From positions 116,897 through 180,896 of the forward strand of contig CAXBMO010000013.1 in the NCBI GenBank assembly GCA_963977015.1: a DNA stretch of 64,000 bases, in the 5' to 3' direction. Each line of letters opens with the position of its first letter. Within the stretch, counting starts at the first letter, position 1. Below the pieces are notes generated by a model, which searched no databases, was not told where the DNA came from, and saw nothing but the letters and a program-made list of their open reading frames with translations. Below, piece by piece: positions 33,742-59,104 of the stretch. Source of the stretch: an uncultured bacterium. Its GTDB lineage: Bacteria > Verrucomicrobiota > Verrucomicrobiia > Verrucomicrobiales > DEV007. The position numbers and the translations under genes are program-made.

Positions 33742-34938
33742 CTACCGAAACAAATCCGGACTTGGCCAGCGGTCTTCAATCCCCCGGATCTGCTCCTCCA
33801 CCGGCGGCTTGACTTTGGGCCAGCTGTGCGGGCGAATCCGGACGATGCGCCCAGGGCGGAAGCCTTCCAGCACGAGCGGAATTTGGATCTGCACCTGAAT
33901 CCCACTGCCGCCAAAGGCTGGGTTTTTCTCGGATTTCTCCACCGCGACCACCCTGCCATCCATTCCATCATGGTCCGGCCAAAAGGTGCGCAGGGTGTCT
34001 TCCGCTGCGGCCATCTGAGCGCCTGTATTGGGCGTGAAATCGGCATAGAGTGATTCGTCCATGCCGCCAAATAGCGTCGCGGTCACGGTTGCCTTTCCGA
34101 ATTCTCCATGGCTGACGGCATCGACCCGGGCCGGCATCCAACGCAGGCGGATGTGGCGCACGTGGCTGCCTTTTTGGCGATCCGTTGCGACCTTCATCGC
34201 AGCGTCGTCGAGCCAAACGTCGGCGGCGTGGAATTGTTGGTAAAGATACCGGGGGTGCCAGGTCAGGCCGAGCTGGATTGCCTGCCCATCGAAGTTCTTC
34301 TTGCCAGATGCCGGCCAGGATCCATCTGCGATGAGATCGGTGAGTCCGAGCAATTCGCGACCGCGCCAGATGCGGGTGGAGCTGTCGATCGTGACCTTGT
34401 GCTCGCCGCCAAGCCCTTCGCCACCGTCCTCCCGATCAAGGCTGGCGATCAGTTGACCTTCTACACCGTTGATCTCCACGGCGGTCAGGTTCCAGGCTTT
34501 GCCTTCGCGCAGACAGAGGCTCGGACCGTCCTCCAGCAGAATCGCGTGATTCTCAGCAGGCTGCGTCACGTTGTTTCCCTTCACCACGGGGACGGAGGAG
34601 GTCTTCGGATCGGGCGGGAGGTAGAAGCGGCCATACAGCACGGTTCCGATCGGAATATCCCGCAACTCGGCCGGCGCGCCGCGATAGCGGATCATGCCGT
34701 AGGGCAACATGGCGAAGTGATGCAGTTTGCCTTCGTGGTAGTGGCCGTTCACGTGCAAGCGCAGGCTTCCGCGCCGATTCACGTGATCGACGAAGACGAG
34801 TTCGCCGCGGTAGGATTTGGCTTCCTCGATGGGTGGAAACTGCCCCGGTTCCGGGCGGAATGGTTCGTCATCGGCAATCGCAATTGGTCCGATGCAAACC
34901 AGAAGGAGTAAGCAAAATGAGAAGGTGGTTCGACTCAT
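33742..34938 (-). CDS. Secreted hypothetical protein, last gene of the DUF1592-DUF1552 operon
   Basis: 398 aa with signal peptide; its start overlaps the DUF1552 stop codon. Confidence 0.75.
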
Positions 34939-36287
34939 CCCAAATCCAGTTCGCGGTTGCTATCGCCAAAGTTCTCCGTTTCCACACCCATCTTCTGCGC
35001 CATGGTCAGGAGGAGGTTACTCATGTGCGCATCGCTGTTTGCGGGGCGGCCACAGAGGCGGTAGTGCGTCCCTGGCTGATCCAGTTGGTATCCGTCGAAG
35101 TGTCCCTGGTTGTGGTCGAGGTGGCGCCCATGCTTGAGCCCCAGGCCGGTTCCACCGGCGAACACCAACGGCAGGTTGGCGTTGCCGTGGCTGTGCCCGT
35201 AGGCCATGCCGCTTCCGAACAGCGCCATCGTGGTGTCGAGCAACGGACTGCCGTCGAGGTCCTTGGTCTCGGCGAGGCGCGAAAGAAAATACCCAAATTG
35301 CTCGACCGCAAACGTGTCACTCTGGGTCAGCGCTTCCATGTGATTGGGATCGCCGTTGTGATGGCTTAGCGCGTGGCGCGACTGGGTGATGCCCAGCTCG
35401 GGAATCGGCAAGCCCTGACCTTCCAAGCCGCTACTGAAAGTGGCGACCCGGGTGGCGTCGGTCTGAAATGCGAGCACGATCAAATCGTAGACGGTCCGAA
35501 AATATTCGCCGGCCTCGGTTTGCGGCACGTCCCGATTGGCGCGCTTGCGATCGGTGTCTGCAATTGACGGGCGCGGAACGTCGAGCCAGGCGTCGGCGCG
35601 ATCGGTGCGAATCTCGGTTTCCCTGACTGCGTTGAGATACTGCTCCAGACGTCCCTTGTCCTCCACTCCCATTTTCGTTTCCAGCTTGCGAACTTCTTCC
35701 AGATTCGAGTCGAGCACGCTGGCCTTGCGTCGCAGCGCCCGCCGTTGGGCTTCCGTGCCGTTCTTGGGTTCCTCAAACAGGTGAGCAAAAATCTGACGGC
35801 AGCGGCTCATTCCCGGAAGCCGGATTCCGTCCGCGGTCCAGGCCAACGACTCGCCCTTGTTCGAAACCTCGAGGGAATGAAAGCGAGTGTGCGGTGACGT
35901 CACTTCCGCCATTTTCTGGTCCACTGAAATCGTGTTGCGATCCGTAGGCCCAAGCTTTCCACCCGTCAGCCAAATCTTTTGGCAGTTGTGATGATGACCC
36001 AGTCCGCCCGGATGGTGCATCCCACTGATCGGGGTGACCACGTTGCGGTGTTTTTCCAGCGGCTTGAGCGAACGCGAAAATTCGAAGTCTTCCCCGGGCG
36101 TGGTGATTTGAAAGTCGAGCGTATTGACGCCGTTCGGGATGTAGACGAACGCGCTGCGTTTTGGCTTGTGAGCTTCAGCCGCTCGGGCGGGGTTCATGCA
36201 TTCGAGAAGCGGCAACGCGATAAAGCTGCCGAGTCCGCGCAACGCATGGCGGCGATCGATCAACCAGGATTGGGTTTGGATATTCAT
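34935..36287 (-). CDS. DUF1552 domain protein (Tat substrate)
   Basis: [45 protein letters not shown]. Confidence 0.9.
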
Positions 36288-36292
36288 GAAGT

Positions 36293-36341
36293 TTTTAGCG
36301 GTTAGCTTTTAGCTTTTAGCTTTTAGCGGTTAGCTCTGAGC
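36293..36341. repeat. Heptamer tandem array NNTTAGC x6 plus 1 degenerate copy
   Basis: ttttagc ggttagc ttttagc ttttagc ttttagc ggttagc tctgagc. Confidence 0.95.
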
Positions 36342-36682
36342 TTCTGGAGAAATGCGTTAAGCATGCGTTTGATTTCGGTGAGTTCGGTGGTGATTTGGCT
36401 GAATTGGGGCGGAGAAAGGTATTGGAGATCGTGGGAGAGAATGAGTTGGTATTCCAACTCCGTTGCGGAGCCCATACTGTGGTCGAGGAACCGCGCAAAA
36501 TCCGCGTCCGAATTTCTGCCACAGCCTTCCGCGATGTTGGTGGGCACGGAAGAAGCGGATCTTCGCATTTGTGAGATGAGACCATACCTTTCTGAATTCG
36601 GAAATTCCTGGGTGATGCGGTAAATTTGAAGCGTGAGTTGGTGCGATCTCTCCCATATTTGCAACTGCCGAAAATCTTTCAT
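36323..36682 (-). CDS. Four-helix-bundle protein (23S rRNA intervening-sequence protein / Avd-like family)
   Basis: MKDFRQLQIW, FP.SERYGL.SQMRRSASSVPTNIAEG, GSATELEYQL; GGAG ribosome-binding site just upstream. Confidence 0.93.
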   Translation of the reverse strand: MKDFRQLQIWERSHQLTLQIYRITQEFPNSERYGLISQMRRSASSVPTNIAEGCGRNSDADFARFLDHSMGSATELEYQLILSHDLQYLSPPQFSQITTELTEIKRMLNAFLQKLRANR

Positions 36683-36692
36683 GGCTCCTAAA

Positions 36693-36727
36693 GCTAATTG
36701 CTAACTGCTAAAGGCTAACGGCTTTGA
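36693..36727. repeat. Heptamer tandem array GCTAANN x4 plus 1 degenerate copy, inverted relative to 36293-36341
   Basis: gctaatt gctaact gctaaag gctaacg gctttga. Confidence 0.93.
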
Positions 36728-39147
36728 ATCAATTCAGACAGGGCGACTGCGCGCACGACGTCTTTGAGTCGGGATTCGTTCCTTTTCGCCTCCGAGACAA
36801 TGGACTGGATTTCATCGTGGTCATCCACCGTCATGACGCGTCGCAGGGCGTAGGTGCAGAGGTGCTCGACGAAAGCTTCCAAAAAGCGGTCACGATCCTC
36901 GAGCAAAAGCTGTTTGAACTCGTGAGCATTCGCGAACTCGCGTCCATCCGGCAAGATGCCGCTGGGATTCACCGGTGGATCCTCGCCCTTGCCTTTCTCC
37001 ACCCGTTCGTGGGTGCGCCATTGACCGATCGCGTCGTATTGATCAAACGCCAGGCCGAGCGGGTCAATATTGCGATGACAGGCGGCGCAATTCGCATCCT
37101 GCGCGTGCGCTTCCAGCTTTTGGCGAATCGTTGCCTTGGGACTGTCCGGTGGATTCGGTTCAATTGGATCGACGTTCGCCGGCGGTGGTGGCGGGGTTTT
37201 GCCGAAAATCGCCTCGCTGAGCCAGACTCCACGATGAACCGGGCGATGCCGCGTGCCGTCAGACGTAAGCCCCAGAATGGCCCCCGTCGTCAGAAGGCCG
37301 CCGCGGTGAGCTTCCTGAGGCAGCGAAACGCGTTGAAAACCCGAGGTTTTGGGATCGGGCAAGCCGTAGAATTCGCACAAACGCGGATTCGCAATCGTCC
37401 AGTCGGAACTGATGAACGTATCAAGCGGCAGGTTGTTGGCGAAGACTTCGCGGAAGTAGTGCACCACTTCTTCGCGCATGCTCGCCTCCAGCCACACGTC
37501 GTATTTCGGGTAGAGCTTGAGATCTGGCGGGAACATTCCCAGACGATGCAATTGGAGCCATTGCCGGGGGAAGTCGTCCATGAACCGGTCGATTTTTGAA
37601 TCCTCCAGCATGCGGTCCACCTGCGCTGCCAGGTTCGCGCGGTCACCGGTTAGTTTCCCTTCCCGGGCAGAATCCCAAAGTGCTTCATCCGGCATCGAAC
37701 TCCAAAGGAGATAGGAAAGGCGGGAGGCCAATTCATAGTCCGTTAGTCTTTCGCGGGGAGTTTCTTCTCCCTCGACCAAATACATGAAATTCCGGGAGGT
37801 GAGCATCCCGAGCAGTGCCACCTGATAGGCTGCGAACACTTCTTCACCGGCCTTGCGCTCCGAATCGTAGGAACGCAGGTAGGGCTCGAGTTCCGTCCGC
37901 GATACCGGGCGACGCCAGGCGCGCTCGGCGAATCGTTGCAGATGATTGGCAACCTCTTCTTCGGTCGCACCTTCACCCGGCAATAGCCCTTCTCGGGTGG
38001 CGATTTCGGTTTCGCTGACGATCGGGCCTTCCCACTCAATCCAGTCCAACAGCACGGCCGAGTAAATGCCATTTCCCTCTTCATCGAACATCTTCGGCGC
38101 CGTTGGATTCAGCAATTGGGTTTCGCTGCTGTGGGTGAAGATGTAATGCGAGCTGGAGAGCGCATTGCGATAATGCCCGCCTTTCTGCCGGTTGATGATG
38201 TCGGTCGCCACGACATTGAAATCGAGGTTCGTGGGCATCTCCAAAAACACTTCGAACTCGATGATCTCCGGCTCATCTTCCGTTGCGAGAATATCGAGCT
38301 CGATCAGCCCCTCATTGGCTCCCTCAACGGTCGCTTGGCCAATCCGAAGATGCGGTGTCTGCCCGCCGGGGGGACGAATTCCGCTCACCTGCATTCTTGC
38401 GCGATACAGCCCGCTCTGTTCCGGACCAATGTGGCCAAACCAGTTCGATCTCAGGGCCTGTTGCGTCCGTCCCGGAAAAATCAGGGCCCGCAGCGGACGT
38501 TTGATTCCAAACCGATCGAGGTATTGCTGCTGAGTTTCCCCCCCGCGATAGCGCGTATCCGCCGCGGTCTTGAGCACTTTCTTGGGATCGACCGGTTTTT
38601 CGGGAAACGCCCGGGTCAGCACCGTCTCGGCCGCGCGGTAATAGCGTTCCACGTGAGAGGGCGCCAGCGAAAGCTGCGATCCGATGCGCTCAAAGCCGTG
38701 CCAGCGCGGATCCTCGTTCAACTCACCCGGTTTGGCTGGATCATAGCGCACGCCGAGCAGATCGTAGACCGTGTTCTCGTATTCCCTGCGGCTCAGGCGG
38801 TAATGTGCCACCGGCGGGCGCGCCGCCATGCGGGCTGCGCGGCCTTCGCGAATGCGGGAATCAAGCTGTTCGATCACCGTCGCGATTTCGTTTTCGGTTG
38901 GCAGCGGTTCGTCTTCCGGCGGCATTTCACCCGAATTGATTCGCTCCACGATCTCCGCCCAAAGATGGCCATTGGCACCGGATTTGAAATCGCGCGACAA
39001 CTCGTCGATTCGGAGGTCGCCCTTTGCCTTGTCCGGGCCGTGGCAACGCACGCAATGCGTTTCGAGAAATGGCTCAAATGGTTCTGCGGCGGAAAGGATC
39101 GTTGCCGGGGAAAAACAGGCGACGATAATGAAAAACAAACGGGTCAT
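36715..39147 (-). CDS. DUF1592/DUF1588 family protein with planctomycete cytochrome c domain
   Basis: [52 protein letters not shown]. Confidence 0.92.
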
Positions 39148-48887: not shown

Positions 48888-50297
48888 ATGAAATGCGCGC
48901 ATCGAATCTTCGCGGTAGCAGCCGCTGGTCTGACTTTGTTCGGGGTGAATCTGGGTTGGGGACAACAGGACGTTCCAAAGCCGAATATCATCCTTATTTT
49001 TGCCGATGACCTCGGTTATGGTGACCTGGGGTGTTATGGCTCGCCAGTGAACACTCCTGAGATTGACCGATTGGCGAGTGAGGGCTTGCGCGCGACCGAT
49101 TGTCTCGTCGCGGCCAGTGTCTGCGGCCCTTCCCGAGCCGCCCTGATGACCGGGCGGTATCCGATGCGGGCGGGGCATCCCATTTCACGGCACAATACCC
49201 CGAAATACGAAAACTACGGGATCGCTTCGGAGGAGGTGACCATGGCGGAATTGCTGCAATCCGCAGGGTATTATACGAAAATGCTCGGCAAGTGGCACCT
49301 GGGGTTTCACGTGGAAGGATCTCATCCGCTCGACGCTGGGTTCGACGATTATTTGGGGCTTCATGGCAACTACTCCAATCAGCATGGAGACCACGATACT
49401 GTTTACCGGAACCGCGAGGTGCTGGAAGAGAAGATTGCTTTCACCAAAGTGACGACACTCTATACCGATGACGCAGTCGGCTTTATAAAACAGGAGCGAG
49501 AAGAACCGTTCTTTCTCTACTTCGCCCATCACATTCCACATACGCCGATTGAGCCCAGCGCGCCCTTCAAAGGCAAGTCCGGGAAAAAGGGAGGCAAGTA
49601 CGGCGATTTCGTGTTGGAGCTTGACCACAGCGTTGGCCGAATTCGAGCAGCGGTGGAAGAAGCTGGTATCGCGGAAAACACCCTCATCGTGTTCCTTTCA
49701 GATAACGGCCCCGCCAAGAATGGCTCAGCGAAACCGTTGAGCGGCGGAAAGTATGTTACGATGGAAGGCGGCCAGCGCGTTCCGGCGATCTTCTCTTGGC
49801 CGGGGAAAATTCCAGCTGACAAAGTTTCGGATGCCATGATCACGAGCATGGATTTGCTGCCTCTTTTCTCCCATCTCGCGGGCGCGCAGCTTCCGACTGA
49901 CCGGCAGATCGATGGGAAGAACATCATCGAACTCTTGACGGGAGAATCGGAGCAAAGTCCGCACGAATATTTCTACTACTACAACGGCTTGAATCTGCAG
50001 GCGGTGCGAAATGAGAGGTGGAAACTGCATCTTCCGCGATCTATTGACGATCAGCCCTATTGGGCGAAACGAGCCGGAGGAAATCCTAAGAAGCTCTATA
50101 CAAGTCTGAAGGAACCGATGTTGTTTGATCTGCAGGCTGACATTGGTGAACGACAGAATGTCATTTCCCAACACCCGGAGATCGTCACGGAATTGATGAA
50201 GGAAGTGGAGCGTGCTCGCGCCGAAATCGGTGACGTTGATGTCACAGGCTCCGATCAGCGTCCCCACAACCTGTTGGACCCCAACTCGAAAGACTAG
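48888..50297 (+). CDS. Sulfatase
   Basis: ADDLG, CGPSR, GKWHLG, SDNG. Confidence 0.95.
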   Translation: MKCAHRIFAVAAAGLTLFGVNLGWGQQDVPKPNIILIFADDLGYGDLGCYGSPVNTPEIDRLASEGLRATDCLVAASVCGPSRAALMTGRYPMRAGHPISRHNTPKYENYGIASEEVTMAELLQSAGYYTKMLGKWHLGFHVEGSHPLDAGFDDYLGLHGNYSNQHGDHDTVYRNREVLEEKIAFTKVTTLYTDDAVGFIKQEREEPFFLYFAHHIPHTPIEPSAPFKGKSGKKGGKYGDFVLELDHSVGRIRAAVEEAGIAENTLIVFLSDNGPAKNGSAKPLSGGKYVTMEGGQRVPAIFSWPGKIPADKVSDAMITSMDLLPLFSHLAGAQLPTDRQIDGKNIIELLTGESEQSPHEYFYYYNGLNLQAVRNERWKLHLPRSIDDQPYWAKRAGGNPKKLYTSLKEPMLFDLQADIGERQNVISQHPEIVTELMKEVERARAEIGDVDVTGSDQRPHNLLDPNSKD

Positions 50298-50306
50298 AAG
50301 ACCATC

Positions 50307-51800
50307 ATGACCAAGAGGATAATTTTAGGGATGGGGCTGATGTGCCTTGCGGCCTTGCAAGGCCAGAATGCGTTCGCGGAAACCCCGCAAACTCCCAACG
50401 TGATCTTCATCCTCATGGATGATATGGGCTACAGCGATGTTAGTTGCTATGGCGCAAAGATGGTCAGCACTCCGAACATCGATCGCATGGCGGCGGAGGG
50501 GCTTCGCTTTACCGACTTCCATACCGGCGCCTCGATTTGTTCGCCTTCACGAGCGGCCTTCCTGACCGGCGCTTATCCTCAACGAAACGGCCTTTATCTG
50601 GGGATCAACCCGAAGCGGGAAGCACATTGGTTTCTAGGCTTGAACCCGGATGAAATCACGATTGCGGAACAGTTCAAGTCGAAGGGCTACAACACCTCGA
50701 TGATTGGGAAATGGCACCTGGGAATGCAGGAGAAGTTTTCGTATTTTCACCAGGGTTTTGATCATTACTACGGGGCGCCGGAGAACATGGGCCACAGCGC
50801 GTTGTTTCGGGATGGCAGAGAGGTGGTCTACAAGCAGGCGCCGCTGGAGAAACTGACAAGCCTCTATACCGAACGGATTGTCAAACAGATCGGCGAGTTC
50901 AAGAATGAACCCTTCTTTATTTACTACGCCCACAACTATCCGCATACCCCATACAAGGCGGGGCCGAAGTTCAGAGGATCTTCCAAAGGAGGGGTGCGTG
51001 GCGATGTGATCCAGGAGCTGGATTGGAGTATCGGGGAAGTTTTGAAAGCTCTGGAGACAAATGGCATCCTGGAAAACACCCTGGTCATCTTCACTTCCGA
51101 CAATGGAGCCACCTCAAACCAGTATTGCCAGCCTTACAGCGGCACCAAGTATGTTTCCCTGGAGGGCGGCCACCGTGTACCGTTTATCCTCTATTGGAAA
51201 GGCGTGATCCAGCAGCCAGGCGTGGTGGATGTTCCGGTCAATGCCATGGATCTGTTTCCGACGCTGAGTGAAATGATCGACGCGCCTATGCCTGAAGACC
51301 GGATTTATGATGGTGTCAGTCTAACCCCGTTATTTTCAGGCGAGGAAATTACCCGCACCGCTGAAACGCCATTCTACTATTACAACTGCGAGAACCTGCA
51401 AGCGGTCCGCGTCGGCGATTGGAAGCTTCATGTGCCGCGTACGAAGGAGCAGATTCCGTGGTGGGGAAGGAAGCTGCAGCAACCGATCGAATCACCGCAC
51501 TTGTTCAACATTGCGGCGGAACCGGATGAGAAAACGGATCTCGCCGCGCAACACCCGGAACGGGTTTCGGAAATGATGAAGTTGGTCGAGGAAACGCGCC
51601 TGAAATTGGGTGAATTCGGCGAACGAGGATCAGAACAACGGCCGACCGGAACCCTCTTCCCCGAAGTGCCGATTCTGAGCAATCAAGCCCAGGACTGGGA
51701 TTCCCTGCCCGACGCGGAAAAGGGGCGGGCGAAAACGGAATTTGAGGGCGGCCACGGCGCGAAGAAGAAACCCAAAGGGAAGAAGCCGAGCAAACTGTGA
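50307..51800 (+). CDS. Sulfatase
   Basis: MDDMG, CSPSR, GKWHLG, SDNG. Confidence 0.95.
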   Translation: MTKRIILGMGLMCLAALQGQNAFAETPQTPNVIFILMDDMGYSDVSCYGAKMVSTPNIDRMAAEGLRFTDFHTGASICSPSRAAFLTGAYPQRNGLYLGINPKREAHWFLGLNPDEITIAEQFKSKGYNTSMIGKWHLGMQEKFSYFHQGFDHYYGAPENMGHSALFRDGREVVYKQAPLEKLTSLYTERIVKQIGEFKNEPFFIYYAHNYPHTPYKAGPKFRGSSKGGVRGDVIQELDWSIGEVLKALETNGILENTLVIFTSDNGATSNQYCQPYSGTKYVSLEGGHRVPFILYWKGVIQQPGVVDVPVNAMDLFPTLSEMIDAPMPEDRIYDGVSLTPLFSGEEITRTAETPFYYYNCENLQAVRVGDWKLHVPRTKEQIPWWGRKLQQPIESPHLFNIAAEPDEKTDLAAQHPERVSEMMKLVEETRLKLGEFGERGSEQRPTGTLFPEVPILSNQAQDWDSLPDAEKGRAKTEFEGGHGAKKKPKGKKPSKL

Positions 51801-53212
51801 ACCAGCCGACTTATTTCAAAAAAGCGGTAGTCTGGCTCGTTGCTTTGGTTGGGCTGCTTGCATGGGCCGAGGCCAGGGACGGTAGACCCAATTTCGTTAT
51901 CATTTTCACCGATGACCAGGGCTACCACGATCTGAGCTGTTTTGGCGGGACGCATGTCTACACACCAAATATCGATCAGATGGCAGCTGAGGGGGTGCGG
52001 CTGACCAGCTTTTATGTAGCGGCACCGCTCTGCACGCCGTCACGAGCAGCTCTCATGACCGGGTGTTATCCGGCACGGATTGATATGGATGTGCCGTCTT
52101 CCTTGGAGATCGAGATGAAGCATATTCCGCCGGGCAGAAAGTTTCCCGTATGTTTGGCCGGCGACGGAAAGGGGCTGAATCCGAAGGATTTGACCATTAC
52201 TGAAGTGGCTCAATCCGCAGGCTACAAAACGGGTATGTTTGGGAAATGGCATCTGGGTGATCAACCCGGGCTTTTGCCCACCCGTCAGGGTTTTGAGAAG
52301 TACTTTGGGATTCCCTACAGTCACGACATTCATCCGCAACACCCCCGGCAGAAGTATTTCAATTTTCCGCCGCTGCCGCTGCTGGAAGGTGAAACCGTCA
52401 TCGAACTGGACCCGGATGCGGACTATCTGACGCGACGGATTACCGAGCGCGCGGTCGATTTTATCAAGCGCAATCAGGATGAGAATTTCTTCCTCTATGT
52501 GGCGCACCCATTACCACACGCCCCCTTGGCGGCCTCACCTCAGATCAAGAAAAAATATGCTCGGCATCTGGAAGGGAATGGCATCGGCAAGCCGGGTATC
52601 TTTCTATCTGCGATTTATGAAATCGATTGGTCCGTGGGTGAGATTCTGAAGGCCCTCAAAGAGCAGGGAATCGATGAGAATACCATCGTGCTTTTTTCGA
52701 CGGATAACGGACCAAGCAAGGGGTCCGCCAAACCCTTGAGTGGTAAGAAGGGAAGCACCTTGGAGGGTGGGCAACGGGTGCCTACAGTGATTCGCTGGCC
52801 GAAAGGAATCCCAGCCGGAAGGATCAACAACCAACTGCTCACGGCAATGGACGTGCTTCCCACCTTCGCAAAACTCAGCGGTGCACAACTGCCGGAGGAT
52901 CTTGTGATCGATGGCAAAGACATCATGCCAACGCTGGCAAATGATGCGGAGAGCCCACACGAGTTTTTCTTCTACGCACATTGGGGCGTGCAGGAAGGGG
53001 TGCGCTGGAAGTCTTGGAAATTGCGGATCATCGAAGGCAAGGAAGCTCTCTATAACCTGGATGAGGATATTGGTGAGAAGAAGAATCTTGCGGCGAATCA
53101 TCCCGAGATCGTTCAACACCTCAAAGCGGCGATGCAGGGTTTCGAGGAAGAGATGGAGGCGAACCGTCGTCCAGCAGCGTTTGTGGAGAATCCCGTCCCT
53201 CTAACCAAATGA
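51797..53212 (+). CDS. Sulfatase
   Basis: TDDQG, CTPSR, GKWHLG, TDNG. Confidence 0.95.
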   Translation: MNQPTYFKKAVVWLVALVGLLAWAEARDGRPNFVIIFTDDQGYHDLSCFGGTHVYTPNIDQMAAEGVRLTSFYVAAPLCTPSRAALMTGCYPARIDMDVPSSLEIEMKHIPPGRKFPVCLAGDGKGLNPKDLTITEVAQSAGYKTGMFGKWHLGDQPGLLPTRQGFEKYFGIPYSHDIHPQHPRQKYFNFPPLPLLEGETVIELDPDADYLTRRITERAVDFIKRNQDENFFLYVAHPLPHAPLAASPQIKKKYARHLEGNGIGKPGIFLSAIYEIDWSVGEILKALKEQGIDENTIVLFSTDNGPSKGSAKPLSGKKGSTLEGGQRVPTVIRWPKGIPAGRINNQLLTAMDVLPTFAKLSGAQLPEDLVIDGKDIMPTLANDAESPHEFFFYAHWGVQEGVRWKSWKLRIIEGKEALYNLDEDIGEKKNLAANHPEIVQHLKAAMQGFEEEMEANRRPAAFVENPVPLTK

Positions 53213-53337
53213 ACCGTCAGCCCACGATGTTTACAATCAGCCTCTCAGTTCCTAACCTGAAAACCTGAATGCGCCGTATTGGATCAAGACGTCCCCAAAG
53301 AATCCATCTCGAAAGATTAAAACTTGAAATCATCAGA

Positions 53338-54891
53338 ATGAAAAACCTACCTCCAATCCTGGCACTGCTCGTGCTCTCTTTGTCGCCCGTTCTGGCAGAG
53401 GCGAAACCTCCTAACGTCGTGCTGATCTTTGCCGACGATCTCGGCTACGGCGATCTCGGCTGCTATGGAGCAACCAAACTCAAAACCCCGAATATCGACA
53501 AATTGGCAGCCGAAGGCCGACGGTTCACCGATGCGCATTCGGCTTCCGCGGTATGCACCCCTTCGCGTTACGGCCTGTTGACGGGGGAATATCCCTTTCG
53601 AGGCAACGGCGGCAAAGGGCTTTGGGGACCGGCGCCGATCACGTCTCCGCTGTTGATCCCTACGGAAACGGTGACGATTGCCGATATCTTCAAGAAGAGC
53701 GGCTACGATACCGCCGTGTTTGGCAAATGGCACCTGGGGTTCGGTGAGGGACAGAACGATTGGCAGGAACCGCTGAGCCCGGGGCCGCAAGACTTGGGGT
53801 TCGACTACTATTTTGGGATGCCGGTGGTGAACAGCGCGCCGCCTTATGTTTATGTGGAGAACGATCGCATTGTCGGCAGCGATCCCGATGATCCGTTGGT
53901 ACACTTGGGCAGAAATCCAAAAGAAAAACCGACGCCAATCACACCCATTCCGCCAAAAGCCGCTCAACGCAGCGCGAATCAGTTTGGTGGCGCGGTTGAA
54001 GCGCACAAGTTATTCAACGATTACGAAGTTGGCACCACGTTGACCAAAAAGGCGACCGAATGGATCAAGTCCCGCGAGGAGAAGCCGTTTTTCTGTTATT
54101 TCTCGACGACCAACGTCCATCACCCGTTCACCCCGGCCAAGCAATTTCAGGATACCAGCGAGTGCGGCGTTTACGGCGACTTCGTCCATGAACTCGACTG
54201 GATTGTCGGACAGGTGATGAAGACCCTTGATGAGGCCGGCGTTGCGGAGAACACCCTTGTGATCTTCACCAGTGACAATGGCGGGATGTTCAATCACGGA
54301 GGGCGCGAGGCTGCAAAACTGGGGCACAAGATCAATGGCACCCTCCTCGGTTCGAAATTCGGGATTTGGGAAGGCGGGCATCGCGTTCCGTTCATCGCCT
54401 GGTGGCCGGGGAAGATTGAGGCGGGCAGTGTTTCCGATCAATTGCTCTGCAGCGTGGATCTGTTGGCTTCGTTTGCCGCGGTGACCGGTCAGGAACTGAG
54501 TGACACGAAAGATAGCATCAATATGCTTCCGGCGTTGGTTGAGAGCCCAAGCGAGCCACTACGCACGGAAATGTTCATGACGCCCAACAAACCTACCCAC
54601 ATGTCTCTGCGGAGAGGGAAGTGGATGTATATTCCGGCGAAAAGCGATGGAGGGTTTCGAGGTTCAAAGCCCAGTCAACACGCCTGGGGTGGTGCCGCCG
54701 TCACCACGTTGGTCGGCACTCCCAATAGTGATATCGAGGACGGCAAGATCAAGAAAGGCGCTCCGCCCGCTCAGCTCTACGATCTGGAGGCCGACCGCAA
54801 CCAGTCGAAGAATCTCTATAACGAGTATCCTGAGGTGGTGCAGGAGATGGAGGCTGCTTTGAAGGAGGCCAAGGCTCAGCGTGGCAAATAG
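53338..54891 (+). CDS. Arylsulfatase
   Basis: Start at ATG 53338 with signal peptide; ADDLG, CTPSRY, GKWHLG, SDNG. Confidence 0.95.
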   Translation: MKNLPPILALLVLSLSPVLAEAKPPNVVLIFADDLGYGDLGCYGATKLKTPNIDKLAAEGRRFTDAHSASAVCTPSRYGLLTGEYPFRGNGGKGLWGPAPITSPLLIPTETVTIADIFKKSGYDTAVFGKWHLGFGEGQNDWQEPLSPGPQDLGFDYYFGMPVVNSAPPYVYVENDRIVGSDPDDPLVHLGRNPKEKPTPITPIPPKAAQRSANQFGGAVEAHKLFNDYEVGTTLTKKATEWIKSREEKPFFCYFSTTNVHHPFTPAKQFQDTSECGVYGDFVHELDWIVGQVMKTLDEAGVAENTLVIFTSDNGGMFNHGGREAAKLGHKINGTLLGSKFGIWEGGHRVPFIAWWPGKIEAGSVSDQLLCSVDLLASFAAVTGQELSDTKDSINMLPALVESPSEPLRTEMFMTPNKPTHMSLRRGKWMYIPAKSDGGFRGSKPSQHAWGGAAVTTLVGTPNSDIEDGKIKKGAPPAQLYDLEADRNQSKNLYNEYPEVVQEMEAALKEAKAQRGK

Positions 54892-55031
54892 ATTGAGAGA
54901 TGAATCGACTCCTCCGGAAGGAATATCAGCCGCTCTCCATTCGCTATTTCCAACAACAGGAAGAAGCGAAACGATCCTCCCAAATTGGGCCCCGGAACAA
55001 CGATCGATAATCACCCAATTTTGAAGAGTCT

Positions 55032-57644
55032 ATGAAGAAAAGGATTATCAGCGCGCTCCTGGTTATGGTCCCCTGGCTTCTCTGTCAGCCATCTTTGGGC
55101 GGAGAAGTCGCGAATCCTGACACCCATCCCTACGCCGACCCGGCGACTCACCGGGAAGGCTATGCGCATGCTGGCGCCGTGGTCAACGAAGCCCGTGTCT
55201 ACGACTTTTACCAACGACAGGCTGATTTCTACATGGCGATGCCTCCACAAGAGCGTCCTGCATTATTGCCGGCTCACCCCGGACTGGATGCCGGACTTCA
55301 CGGCCATTGGGGGAAGCACAACCAGAATCAACACAAAGACGGTCGCTGGAATGAGGTCGAGATCGGCTCAATCATTTCTCACGTCACTCGAGGTAATCCC
55401 AAAGAACTGGATCTCGTGGTAAAGGGCATCAACGTGAAGCTGGGTGATGGTATCGCGGCCTGTTTTGATCCGGAGTCGCTCAACTATCGGGCCATCTGGG
55501 ATGGTTGGCTCAGCTTCAATCCCTTTCGCTGGGGCTCCTCGCGAAATACGACCATCACCGGAACGATGCGATTTGCCCAAAAGGACCCGATCCCGTTGGA
55601 AGATGGTCGATACCTGGGGCTCTACCGCCATGGCGACCGGGTGATCTTTCATTATCGCGCTGGTGAAGTTGAGATCCTCGACAGCCCCGGCGTTCGCGAT
55701 GGCGAATTCGTTCGCACGGTGGAAGTCATCAGCGCGGGTGGCAGAGAATCGCTCCCTGAGCTGCCCGGGCCTGCCCCGGAGTATGGGGAACTTGCCCAGT
55801 TCACCCAAGGCGGCGAACCCGCTTGGTCCGAGACCGTGAAGACGGAAGTGATCATGGGGGCGTCAAAATCCAGTTCGGCCTATGTGGTGGATACGTTGGT
55901 CGTTCCGTATGAAAATCCCTACAAGTCGGTGATGCAGCTAACCGGTATCGCGTTTGGCTCTGACGATACCCTGTATGTATCCACGCTGGTGGGTGAAATT
56001 TGGTCGATCAAGGAGGACCCGGCTCAGCCAAATCAACTCATTTGGAAGCGCTTCGCCTCGGGGCTCAATTCGCCATTCGGTCTGCACTGCGATGAGGATG
56101 GCCTGTTCGCGCTCGAGCGCGGTCAGATTCTCCGTTTCCACGATCTCAATGACGATGGGGAGGTCGATTACTACGAGAGTTATGCCAACGACTTCCGCGA
56201 TCAGGGCAAGAGCCATACCCACACGTTCGGTCTTCACCGCACTGCGGATGGTGCCTTCCACTTCACTCAAAAGGAACAGATCATGCGAACGTCGCCGGAT
56301 CGGGTAACGCGCGAGGTCGGTTACGGGATTCGAAATGGAATGGGAATCGGCGGCTCGACTGACTATTTCTGGATTGGCCCCCAGGAAGGAACCTGGACTC
56401 CGGCATCCAGCATCATCGAAGTTGAGGAAGGCAACTACTATGGCTTGCCGCGTGGTAACGAACCCAATCCCATCTCGGCACCCATCTGTTTCATCCCCAG
56501 GGGGATCGATAATTCAAACGGCGGGTTTCTCGAAATCACCTCCGATCGATGGGGACCGTTCCAGGGATCACACGTCGGACTGAGCTTTGGCGCCTGTTCT
56601 CACTATCTCATTTTGCGAGATGCCGAAGGCCCCAAACCACAGGCAGCGACCGTTCCGCTTGAGGGCGAATTTCTAGCCGGAGTCGTTCGGGGAGCCTTTC
56701 GCGAGAGCGATGGGCAGCTCTACGTCGTTGGCCTCGACGGATGGGGAGACTATTCGCTCGAAGATGGCTGCCTGCATCGGGTGCGCTACACCGGTGGCGA
56801 AGTTCACAAGCCATCTGCCTTTCAGGTTTTCGAGAATGGGATCCGGATCGATTTTCCGATGTCCCTGGATCAAGAAGCTGCCACGCAGGTGTCGAACTAC
56901 CTGGCCCAGACTTGGGAGTATGTTTTTTCCAAGGGCTATGGATCTCCGGAATACTCTGCCAACTCGGATCAGGTCGGCCACGATGTGGTTGAGATTGCTT
57001 CAGTTCATCCACTCGAGAATCCGAACTCGATCTTTGTCGAAATCCCTGAACTGGAACCTACCATGGTTCTTTATCTGCGGATGCACCTCAAAACAGGCCA
57101 AGGCGCTCCGTTCAAGACGGATCTGTTTGCCTCGACGATGTACCCACAGCCCTACTTCGGTTTTGAGGGCGCGATGCCACCACGCGAAGGAAAATCCACC
57201 GAAATCGCTCTACGAATCAAGTCCTCCAAGCCCGGTTCGAAACGCAAACAAACTGGTGAGGTGATCGAGGGCGCAAGGGAGTTGGTTGTCAACGCGATCA
57301 GCGGTCTCCGCTACGAACAGACTTTGCTCGAGGTGAACCCCAGGGAGCCCATCGCCCTGAAATTTGTGAACAAGGATGTGATGCCGCACAATCTCGTCAT
57401 CGTCGCGCCGGGCGCCACGGAGAAAGTGGGAATGGCCTCCTTTAAGATGTTGAACGATCCCGAAGCCGGCGAGAAGAACTACGCACCCGATCTGCCGGAG
57501 GTCCGCCTGGTGGTGCCGGTGATCGCCCCCAACCAGGCCCACACTCTCTACTTTCGAGCTCCGGGGAAGAAAGGCGACTACCCGTATTTATGCACCTTTC
57601 CCGGGCACTGGCAAGCGATGCAGGGCATCCTGAGAGTTCGTTAG
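55032..57644 (+). CDS. DUF6797-like propeller protein with C-terminal azurin/auracyanin-type cupredoxin domain
   Basis: Signal peptide, WKRFASGL..PFGL, QEGTWTPAS, MPHN...YPYLCTFPGHWQAM (type-1 copper ligands). Confidence 0.82.
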   Translation: MKKRIISALLVMVPWLLCQPSLGGEVANPDTHPYADPATHREGYAHAGAVVNEARVYDFYQRQADFYMAMPPQERPALLPAHPGLDAGLHGHWGKHNQNQHKDGRWNEVEIGSIISHVTRGNPKELDLVVKGINVKLGDGIAACFDPESLNYRAIWDGWLSFNPFRWGSSRNTTITGTMRFAQKDPIPLEDGRYLGLYRHGDRVIFHYRAGEVEILDSPGVRDGEFVRTVEVISAGGRESLPELPGPAPEYGELAQFTQGGEPAWSETVKTEVIMGASKSSSAYVVDTLVVPYENPYKSVMQLTGIAFGSDDTLYVSTLVGEIWSIKEDPAQPNQLIWKRFASGLNSPFGLHCDEDGLFALERGQILRFHDLNDDGEVDYYESYANDFRDQGKSHTHTFGLHRTADGAFHFTQKEQIMRTSPDRVTREVGYGIRNGMGIGGSTDYFWIGPQEGTWTPASSIIEVEEGNYYGLPRGNEPNPISAPICFIPRGIDNSNGGFLEITSDRWGPFQGSHVGLSFGACSHYLILRDAEGPKPQAATVPLEGEFLAGVVRGAFRESDGQLYVVGLDGWGDYSLEDGCLHRVRYTGGEVHKPSAFQVFENGIRIDFPMSLDQEAATQVSNYLAQTWEYVFSKGYGSPEYSANSDQVGHDVVEIASVHPLENPNSIFVEIPELEPTMVLYLRMHLKTGQGAPFKTDLFASTMYPQPYFGFEGAMPPREGKSTEIALRIKSSKPGSKRKQTGEVIEGARELVVNAISGLRYEQTLLEVNPREPIALKFVNKDVMPHNLVIVAPGATEKVGMASFKMLNDPEAGEKNYAPDLPEVRLVVPVIAPNQAHTLYFRAPGKKGDYPYLCTFPGHWQAMQGILRVR

Positions 57645-57709
57645 CACTGCCTGACTCCGTGATAGTGTAACGAGAAGAAGTAGTAGTACAATTTGTCATT
57701 GAAGATCCC

Positions 57710-59104
57710 ATGAATATACGTCCAGCGTTCGTATCCCTGATTGTCCTGTTCCTGAGTGTCACCGGTGTCTTGGCGGCAGATCCGGCGGCCTCCAAGCCCA
57801 ATATCCTGTTCATCTTTGCCGATGACTGGGGATGGGGGGATCTTAGTTGTCATGGCCATCCCTATATCAAGACCCCCAATATTGACCGGTTGGCCAATAA
57901 GGGCACGGATTTTACCAACTTCACCGTCGCCAGCGGAGTGTGTTCGCCCAGTCGCGCGGCGATTCTGACGGGAAGGTTTCCGGCCCGGTTCGGAATCAGC
58001 GGGCATTTCGCCAGCGTGAGGTCCAATACGAATCGGAAGATGCCCGACTGGTTGGACCCCGGGGTGCCGACGCTGCCACGAATCCTTCAGGAAGCCGGTT
58101 ACCTGACCGGACACTTCGGCAAGTGGCACCTGACCGGCAGCGAAGTTGCCGACGCCCCGCGACCCGAGCTCTATGGTTATGACCGGGTCGGTGCCTACAA
58201 TTGTTCCGGCGAACTCATGCCGGTGCACGACGATGCGAAGAACGCGGTTTCCCTCATCGAAACGAGTCATCGGGAAGGAAAGCCGTTTTTCATCAACCTG
58301 TGGGTTCATGAGCCTCACACGCCGTTCCATACCGTTAAAGAGTATGAAGACCGGTTTCCTGACTTGCCCAAGGCCGACAACATCTATGCCTCCGTTCTTT
58401 CCCACGCCGATGATCGCATCGGGCAGGTTTTGGATGCGCTGGATCGTCTCGGGATGACTGAGAACACCCTCGTGATCTTCAGTTCCGACAACGGGCCCGC
58501 TGGAAGCGGAAAAGCAGGGAAGCTGGTCATGAAGAATGATCCCGCGACCGGTGATGGCTATTTCGGCGCTTCCATGGGGACGACCGGGGGGCGCAAGGGC
58601 CGCAAGCGTAGCCTCTTTCAGGGTGGAGTAGGGGTTCCGTTTCTCGCGCGGTGGCCGGGCAAAATTGAAGCTGGCGGTCGCGATGATGTTTCGTGGATCT
58701 CTGCCGTGGACCTGCTCCCGACGTTTTGTGAAGTCGCCGGAGCGGACTTGCCTGCGGACTTTCAGGCGGATGGCAAAAGCCAGCTTGCGGTGTTGACGGG
58801 GCAGCCGGAAGCTCAGCGGGAAAAGCCCCTTTATTGGACGAGGCACAGCGCCGGAGGATCGGGACCCGGCCAAATTGGAGAATACGCGATTTTGGAGGGC
58901 AAATGGAAGCTCCTTGCCGACAATGAATCCAAACAGGTTGAACTCTATGATGTCAGCCAGGATGCCTTGGAGAGGGTGGATTTGAGTGCGCAATTTCCCG
59001 AGCGCGTCGCGGATCTGACTCAGAAGCTCAAGGAGTGGAAAAAGTCACTCCCCGAGGAGGTGGATGCGGGCGTGAAGTCCAAATTGCGGAAAAACACCGG
59101 GTAG
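57710..59104 (+). CDS. Sulfatase
   Basis: ADDWG, CSPSR, GKWHL, SDNG. Confidence 0.95.
   Translation: MNIRPAFVSLIVLFLSVTGVLAADPAASKPNILFIFADDWGWGDLSCHGHPYIKTPNIDRLANKGTDFTNFTVASGVCSPSRAAILTGRFPARFGISGHFASVRSNTNRKMPDWLDPGVPTLPRILQEAGYLTGHFGKWHLTGSEVADAPRPELYGYDRVGAYNCSGELMPVHDDAKNAVSLIETSHREGKPFFINLWVHEPHTPFHTVKEYEDRFPDLPKADNIYASVLSHADDRIGQVLDALDRLGMTENTLVIFSSDNGPAGSGKAGKLVMKNDPATGDGYFGASMGTTGGRKGRKRSLFQGGVGVPFLARWPGKIEAGGRDDVSWISAVDLLPTFCEVAGADLPADFQADGKSQLAVLTGQPEAQREKPLYWTRHSAGGSGPGQIGEYAILEGKWKLLADNESKQVELYDVSQDALERVDLSAQFPERVADLTQKLKEWKKSLPEEVDAGVKSKLRKNTG

Follow-up and report, generated by a model that had tools for sequence, protein, structure and literature searches.

A gene of 119 codons for a four-helix-bundle protein of the PF05635/TIGR02436 family lies, together with two inverted arrays of heptamers, in the interval between the stop codon of a DUF1592 gene and the start codon of a DUF1552 gene. 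We are confident that this feature is real and that it represents a passenger cassette. Judged by the alleles of its relatives, the junction slot is shown to be gained, swapped and lost, and the gene is shown to belong together with its arms, whose repeat is specific to the clade. The reading that we prefer, to which we give a probability of about 0.5, is that of a slowly spreading passenger, which would replace the stop-to-start interval of an operon and be lost again by deletion, and whose ring protein probably recognises the cores of its own repeats.

A bundle gene between two inverted arms

Open reading frames, profile matches and the positions of the repeat cores agree with the original prediction, which had placed this gene, framed by inverted heptamer arrays, between DUF1592 and DUF1552 genes in the window (the whole stretch of 64,000 nucleotides analysed; Table 1). 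The paralogous DUF1592-DUF1552 pair elsewhere in the window is indeed separated by a gap of 26 nt. On the mRNA strand, the left arm consists of four perfect TTAGC cores (36718-14, 36711-07, 36704-00 and 36697-93) followed by TTAGG at 36691-87, and a fifth in-register AGC (36723-21) lies within the upstream coding sequence. The four to five units first counted are therefore present, but the array enters the upstream gene two codons further than had been stated. The right arm begins with GCTCA at 36341-37 and continues with six GCTAA cores down to 36299-95.

Table 1. Features of the cassette and its host genes (positions 34935-39147 of the window, minus strand)
Feature	Positions	Strand	Basis
Upstream host gene, 810 aa, PSCyt1/PSD3/PSD5/PSD4(DUF1592)/PSCyt3/PSD2	36715..39147	-	ORF list and Pfam domains
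Left arm: in-register AGC, four TTAGC cores at 7-nt spacing, out-of-register TTAGG	36687..36723	-	
Four-helix-bundle gene PF05635/TIGR02436, 119 aa	36323..36682	-	ORF, profile matches and structure model
Right arm: a degenerate core and six perfect GCTAA cores, 7-nt spacing	36293..36343	-	
5-nt spacer (ACTTC), last right-arm unit to DUF1552 start codon	36288..36292	-	
Downstream host gene, DUF1552 (PF07586), 450 aa	34935..36287	-	

As had been proposed, the arrays supply both the TAG of the upstream gene (36717-15, a piece of a left-arm core) and the TAA of the bundle gene (36325-23, a piece of a right-arm core), and stop 5 nt short of the DUF1552 ATG. The last two codons of the upstream gene and its stop overlap the left arm, and the final codons of the bundle gene are built from right-arm units. 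The upstream product ends in QSR*; 63 of 72 relatives end in -KR*, and the penultimate Ser is found in 4 of 120 junction alleles (L007, L010, L014 and L324), all with the repeat type of this locus. The GC content of the bundle gene (49.7%) is below that of its neighbours (58.4% and 59.6%), as had been suspected. The two arms are 75-87% complementary, and the predicted fold of a 456-nt mRNA pairs them (z = -2.8; as stable in 0 of 100 shuffles), in keeping with the idea that they can pair on the message. By comparison, both flanks scored at least 0.65 in none of 400 gene ends from the genome of the locus.

The stated absence of rRNA, reverse transcriptase (RT) and transposase at the locus also held, as Rfam gave no match in the window, and Pfam scans of its ORFs (6, then 45) returned no transposase or RT domain. 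No promoter- or terminator-like site was found within the cassette. Its two ends share no direct repeat of 10 nt or longer, and no empty site is near enough to define short duplications. In a close strain, represented by one contig, the right arm is two units (14 nt) shorter. A further contig, in which the arms are joined via 25 other letters (depth 2, with 28 letters on its shorter side and 88% likeness), may derive from another organism and was discarded.

Two neighbouring features of the window are recorded here in their own right. A 398-aa gene directly after DUF1552 (33742-34938, minus strand) has no Pfam or NCBIfam match, and a gene that looks similar sits between DUF1592 and DUF1552 in locus L036. 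Five clustered sulfatase genes (48888-59101, plus strand) lie just before the second DUF1592-DUF1552 pair.

The bundle protein and its repeats across the family

The protein matches PF05635 with 141.6 bits (cut-off 33.8) and TIGR02436 with 138.8 bits (cut-off 24). Its predicted model (pLDDT 96.5, four helices) superimposes on 2GSC (Xcc0516) with Z 21.1 and an rmsd of 1.0 A over 113 aa. Against Avd it reaches Z 15.1 (8ub7) and 14.7 (4dwl), with unrelated bundles at 13.1 or less; the Avd profiles stay below their cut-offs (NF033474, 35.5 vs 80 bits; PF22296, 30.5 vs 40 bits). Within the family motif GxxRxxxSxxxNxxE (PMC3936711), R41, S45, N49 and E52 are invariant or nearly so in 54 sequences, and Q38 stands at the position of the motif G. 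The five-chain entries 2GSC and 2RLD, together with PMC4990558, suggest that the protein is a homopentamer. Values of dN/dS between 0.06 and 0.14 in 9 of 11 cassette-gene pairs (the other 2 being saturated) indicate that it is under purifying selection. We know of no catalytic site in the bundle protein.

Genes of the PF05635 family occur in 44 of 61 sampled genomes of the phylum, with up to 23 copies. In the literature they are described within cas loci (PMC3936711) or merely listed as strain-specific (PMC8700078). Other family members proved to be flanked by inverted arrays, as had been anticipated. The 195 profile matches yielded 185 distinct loci of sufficient length, 178 of them with complete flanks; arrays of 7 or 8 nt were present on both flanks of 100 of these 178 loci and on at least one flank of 158. 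As the loci are top matches and mutually related, these counts are descriptive. Among 400 control gene ends of the genome of the locus, none had arrays on both flanks, and 7 and 8 had one on a single flank. The arms are inverted at 119 loci and direct at 21, and the inverted match score reaches at least 12 in 72 of 87 phylum-wide loci vs 5% of cross-locus pairs. Under a crude ORF rule, 94 of 150 loci have both neighbours in the same direction as the gene. The median distance is 4 nt between the upstream stop and the first unit, and 11 nt between the last right-arm unit and the ATG that follows (87 loci). The arms keep a fixed polarity with respect to the gene, with G>C in the upstream arm at 49 of 54 loci and C>G in the downstream arm at 46 of 54.

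Copies within one genome bear differing units. The genome of the locus (G000) holds further PF05635 genes at C31:10253, C51:2615, C6:309966 and C43:25595 (L003-L006), three of which have arrays of their own units; L006 is partial and has no array. On plasmid pPg_01 of the cultured cyanobacterium Pseudanabaena galeata CCNP1313, a gene of the same clade (L262:2501-2860, 66%) with long GCTAA arrays is flanked by cas6 and cas4 within a type I-D CRISPR operon. Matches were obtained in 35 of 72,556 plasmid records, most of them cyanobacterial. Throughout the genome of the locus, orphan arrays were found at 5 of 887 co-directional junctions vs 3 after shuffling, so that few clear cases are shown here. 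It also has gene-less hairpins of short-unit arrays (C6:108355-108470, C24:74917-75033, C30:2089-2225, C31:33620-33707 and C41:21367-21470) and lone arrays of the unit type of the locus (C28:71621, C39:32746 and C4:349875). Stop codons are present in 37 of 75 repeat units vs 30.6 in shuffled ones (93 of 2000), a signal too weak to use.

The original prediction asked whether the repeat unit follows the protein clade, and it does. At the DUF1592-DUF1552 junction, clade A is accompanied by A arms in 10 of 10 cases and clade C by C arms in 5 of 5, while clade B has B arms on the right in 9 of 9 and on both sides in 8 of 9. A protein and its closest counterpart from a different genome have the unit in common at a rate of 0.27 vs 0.11 in within-genome permutations (0 of 2000; 88 loci). 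Units are shared in 48% of cross-genome pairs at a protein distance below 1 and in 4-9% beyond 1.5; the overall rank correlation is just -0.06. Outside this junction, the GCTRA unit of the locus accompanies 38 of 65 close homologues, from 11 phyla, but only 1 of 87 phylum-wide loci; the downstream neighbours of these homologues, which could be called at 27 loci, belong to 17 gene families. Gene and arms are thereby shown to travel together; the covariation, seen only among close proteins, does not establish binding and would equally arise from plain hitch-hiking.

The locus had been read as a mobile or regulatory "mRNA intervening sequence". Its first element, a discrete cassette of gene plus arms, stands; excision at the RNA level has so far gained no support, neither a strand bias nor a G-U bias being found. 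According to this explanation, which we consider unlikely, the arms pair, RNase III cuts the stem, the RNA of the bundle gene is released and the operon message is split or re-tuned. The stable fold of the arms, their fixed polarity and the presence of an RNase III gene (rnc) in the genome speak for it, as does Coxiella burnetii's 23S intervening sequence (IVS), where the same gene family and heptamers meet an RNase III site that lies where the first repeat begins (PMC4990558). Against it, the sense duplex is the stronger one in just 59 of 118 loci, mismatches compatible with G-U pairing (151) are not in excess over A-C mismatches (145; 118 loci), and at the window locus the antisense duplex is more stable than the sense duplex (-46.2 vs -36.5 kcal/mol). 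Arms-only, right-only and direct-orientation arrangements are common, and cleavage without religation would part a coupled gene pair.

The spacers, too, are scarcely complementary. In 43 clade-A loci the variable core base agrees between arms at 0.91 vs 0.54 in shuffled controls, an agreement which partly reflects shared ancestry. The two spacer bases barely agree (0.15 vs 0.11 shuffled, 370 of 5000), and the second one alone does so mildly (0.44 vs 0.33, 17 of 5000). Five conserved core nucleotides separated by freely varying spacers are what one would expect of arrayed binding sites rather than of a substrate for a nuclease, although a helix with periodic loops may also account for the pattern.

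Gain, exchange and loss at the DUF1592-DUF1552 junction

Both sets of junctions were found via DUF1552 and not via the cassette. The genome set comprises 70 loci, 62 of them with an adjacent upstream gene end, and the metagenome set 80 of 120 stretches, 64 of them usable. Among 120 distinct junction alleles, 37 carry a gene, 33 are at most 20 nt long, 15 have the right arm only, 9 both arms, 1 the left arm only, and 25 are of other kinds; arm states follow a strict motif rule with three unit types, by which L014 scores as right-only and L302 as left-only, both being two-armed by eye. Empty orthologous junctions, for which a search had been suggested, are thus well represented. We also looked for the observations named beforehand as contrary evidence, namely orthologous operons that always carry the gene without repeats and family members without inverted arrays, and neither describes what we found.

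Among the passengers of the junction are members of four PF05635 clades and GxxExxY genes, besides a RAYT-like gene, a DUF7638 gene and further ones. A DUF1552 tree with 71 rows, which includes 8 loci picked by cassette, requires at least 36 changes of the states scored by eye, and 13 changes in the presence of clade A. Within the genome of the locus, 2 of the 23 DUF1592-DUF1552 junctions found carry a PF05635 gene, each with its own unit; the second cassette (L002, G000:C45:3876-4193) is 59% identical to the first and has a CAG/CTG-type unit. At another such junction (L248, G000:C6:314736-315077) lies a GxxExxY gene with an internal TAG and a longer-repeat hairpin on each side.

Several single alleles illustrate the variety of inserts. 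A RAYT-like gene (NF047646 71 bits, cut-off 80) with palindromic repeats occupies L360:711-1391, and in L351 a similar insert has a clade-B right arm kept behind it, which suggests layered insertions. A DUF7638/DUF7639 gene is present at L319:452-1381, and a reversed pair with a weak aspartyl-protease match at L018:787-1381. L008 contains a reversed, broken gene that, by eye, we take to be Rpn-like. In L136, a GxxExxY cassette with copies of its arm and 3' end represents a partial tandem duplication.

It is shown in part, by synonymous divergence, that two sister pairs share their cassette far more recently than their flanks. The cassette and DUF1552 dS values are 0.22 vs 0.88 in L127/L147 and 0.05 vs 0.40 in L043/L044; in three other pairs the two values are equal, and the cassette gene is therefore not simply slow-evolving. 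In both sister pairs identity climbs near the host stop and drops near the next ATG, with no raised identity in the adjoining 100 nt of either flank. L143 and L150, whose flanks are 89% and 91% identical, hold a GxxExxY gene and a clade-C gene, respectively.

Loss by deletion, usually sparing the right arm beside the downstream ATG, is likewise shown in part by sequence alleles. L315 and L354 have internal cassette deletions, L341 and L363 are right-arm-only sisters of the filled L353 and L347, and L324 retains the arm-made Ser codon with only the right arm left. Right-only and left-only alleles stand at 15:1. This retention, together with the fixed polarity of the arms, hints at a constraint specific to one strand, the simplest being that the right arm would serve as downstream leader. 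At the opposite end, the cassette may reshape the last codon of its host. CGC is the final host codon in 0 of 23 PF05635-filled vs 32 of 43 gene-less alleles, and in 3 of 17 vs 23 of 41 in the metagenome set; on independent pairs the contrast has a median p of 0.06, which is suggestive without being proof.

In the main host clade, the identity of the cassette rises with that of DUF1552 (rho 0.82 over 78 non-independent pairs), which makes vertical descent with loss a large part of the history. The top paralogue identity within a genome is 34-61% (fetched copies from 8 genomes; assemblies can collapse identical repeats), which gives no sign of current within-genome spread. Cassettes are 69-76% identical in cases where DUF1552 is 48-55% identical, and 58-61% where it is 80-81%. 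Such identities suggested a jump between host paralogues, a candidate that was not confirmed, since the AU test does not reject the host-congruent grouping of L037/L046/C45 (p 0.146). Synonymous divergence is raised at the 3' end of the upstream gene, but equally so in gene-less pairs, and was therefore dropped as a sign of flank co-conversion.

Small genes might simply be swapped into the slot by homologous recombination, the arrays being hitch-hiking products of slippage and the function of the protein unrelated. Many unrelated inserts at one junction, the variation of unit number between close strains and a mosaic inside the gene of L044/L047, which ordinary homologous recombination explains, are consistent with such a plain slot. 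We regard it as highly improbable, as the arms flank the family across phyla in unrelated contexts with fixed polarity and inverted geometry, their cores are conserved while spacers vary, and in the two recent transfers the raised identity stops short of the adjoining 100 nt on either flank.

Control of the downstream DUF1552 gene, another part of the original prediction, looks unlikely. A host-beneficial regulator would require that the ring on right-arm mRNA sets downstream translation, each pair of paralogue and unit forming an orthogonal control module. Purifying selection on the protein, the retained right arm close to the next ATG, the up to 23 diverse paralogues per genome with differing units and the translational role that MacGregor proposed for TAACTGA repeats just ahead of start codons (PMC4679880) would all suit this idea. 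We nevertheless find a dedicated regulator improbable: 83 of the 120 junction alleles are gene-less, unrelated genes substitute for the cassette, the same clade precedes 17 unrelated gene families, frameshifts are present in 2 of the genome set's 10 clade-A copies, and the gene is found at so few of the junctions in its own genome.

An enzyme encoded elsewhere, such as an Avd-style RT, a REP-associated tyrosine transposase or the GxxExxY nuclease, could instead move the cassette as a non-autonomous element. In favour of this, the protein shares the fold of Avd, which binds RNA stem-loops in the complex of diversity-generating retroelements (DGR; 10.1101/2023.10.23.563531), GxxExxY and RAYT-like genes use the same junction, and GxxExxY genes have inverted arms at 21 of 32 loci vs 5% across loci. 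Their copy numbers also rise with that of the cassette (rho 0.65 for GxxExxY, 0.54 for Y1_Tnp), but a PIN control correlates about equally (0.55), and we rejected both as mobilisers identified by co-occurrence. RT presence correlates weakly with cassette copy number; an RT was found in only 2 of 9 genomes with at least 7 copies (assemblies may miss multi-copy introns), and no mobiliser could be identified. The three RVT_1 matches in the genome of the locus are all on other contigs, with none among the window ORFs. Near-identical paralogues are lacking, and no match occurred in 50,697 phage records. Altogether, we judge a mobiliser acting in trans to be quite unlikely, and return to the slowly spreading passenger as our preferred reading.

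Relation to known systems and a possible mechanism

By our tests the cassette is not a member of the rRNA IVSs, the DGRs or the insertion sequences (IS); in its way of working it resembles a minimal mobile element or an IVS that bears an ORF. With respect to IS and MITE criteria, it has no transposase (only PF05635 and a weak bAvd match) and no near-identical copies. The ORF-bearing 23S rRNA IVSs of Coxiella burnetii and Leptospira resemble it in that a PF05635 gene is looped out by terminal inverted repeats, and they share heptamers, a GC content below that of the host and a sporadic distribution (PMC4990558). In Coxiella the heptamers, of variable number, lie ahead of the S23p ORF, for which an old proposal held that it served mobility (PMC4990558). 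Unlike these IVSs, the cassette stands in a protein-coding operon with protein genes as neighbours, and none of 176 family loci matched a fragment comprising the 5' half of 23S. Whereas the window protein is under purifying selection, the ORF in Coxiella has been characterised as decaying (PMC4990558).

Minimal mobile elements are defined by exchange via homologous recombination in the flanking genes. As in Neisseria, where alternative small loci occupy one syntenic position (PMC1797815), our junction holds alternative loci between the same conserved flanks. The cassettes differ in owning clade-specific inverted arrays, in recurring at unrelated junctions across phyla and in showing no co-conversion of the flanks at 100-nt resolution. 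Avd, a pentameric, S23-like RNA-binding barrel (10.1101/2023.10.23.563531), has the same fold, but the window protein stays below the Avd cut-offs, no RT lies nearby and none was found in most cassette-rich genomes. GxxExxY genes (TIGR04256/PF13366), which resemble the cassette in their inverted arms and junction slot, belong to an unrelated PD-(D/E)XK nuclease family, and their arms are by eye of longer period (about 9-10 nt). In the open literature we found no paper on GxxExxY genes with inverted arms, nor a description of a gene-plus-arms cassette in protein operons.

In Beggiatoaceae, runs of the heptamer TAACTGA likewise lie right before start codons within operons, some overlapping the upstream stop; they were reported without a mechanism, and the main text of that report makes no mention of four-helix-bundle proteins, S23 or intervening sequences (PMC4679880). 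Units of the ACTGA type occur on PF05635 arms in L081, L094, L104 and L234. Cyanobacterial STRR is another orphan intergenic heptamer repeat. Orphan heptamers before bacterial start codons may be cassette debris.

How the slowly spreading passenger might operate can be outlined as follows. The cassette, consisting of left arm, bundle gene and right arm, would lodge in the stop-to-start interval of an operon. A pentameric ring would bind its own arms at their invariant 5-nt cores, with RNA or single-stranded DNA as the most likely target. This binding would help the cassette replace the junction interval of the recipient by way of the host's recombination, using short stretches of homology close to the stop and start codons. 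Thereafter the right arm would act as the leader of the downstream gene, which could explain why it survives deletions. Additionally, arm pairing may draw the upstream stop near the downstream start, thus softening polarity.

More tentatively, PF05635 genes might form the core of enzyme-free mobile elements found across phyla, in which a pentameric ring reads its own clade-specific heptamer code and drives a precise replacement of the stop-to-start interval. In that wider picture, which we hold to be possible and the less probable of our own proposals, rRNA IVSs would be landings in 23S genes, and orphan heptamers would be leftover right arms serving as leaders.

For annotation, our findings imply that PF05635 genes should not be taken as functional members of their host operons, be these CRISPR, transport or DUF1592-DUF1552 operons. 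The one-to-one pairing of clade and unit at a single junction offers a ready test of specificity and, if binding holds, a source of natural orthogonal protein-repeat pairs. If true, our reading would give a biological role to PF05635, a very common orphan family, and would tie it to the origin of ORF-bearing rRNA intervening sequences and to the unexplained heptamers before start codons.
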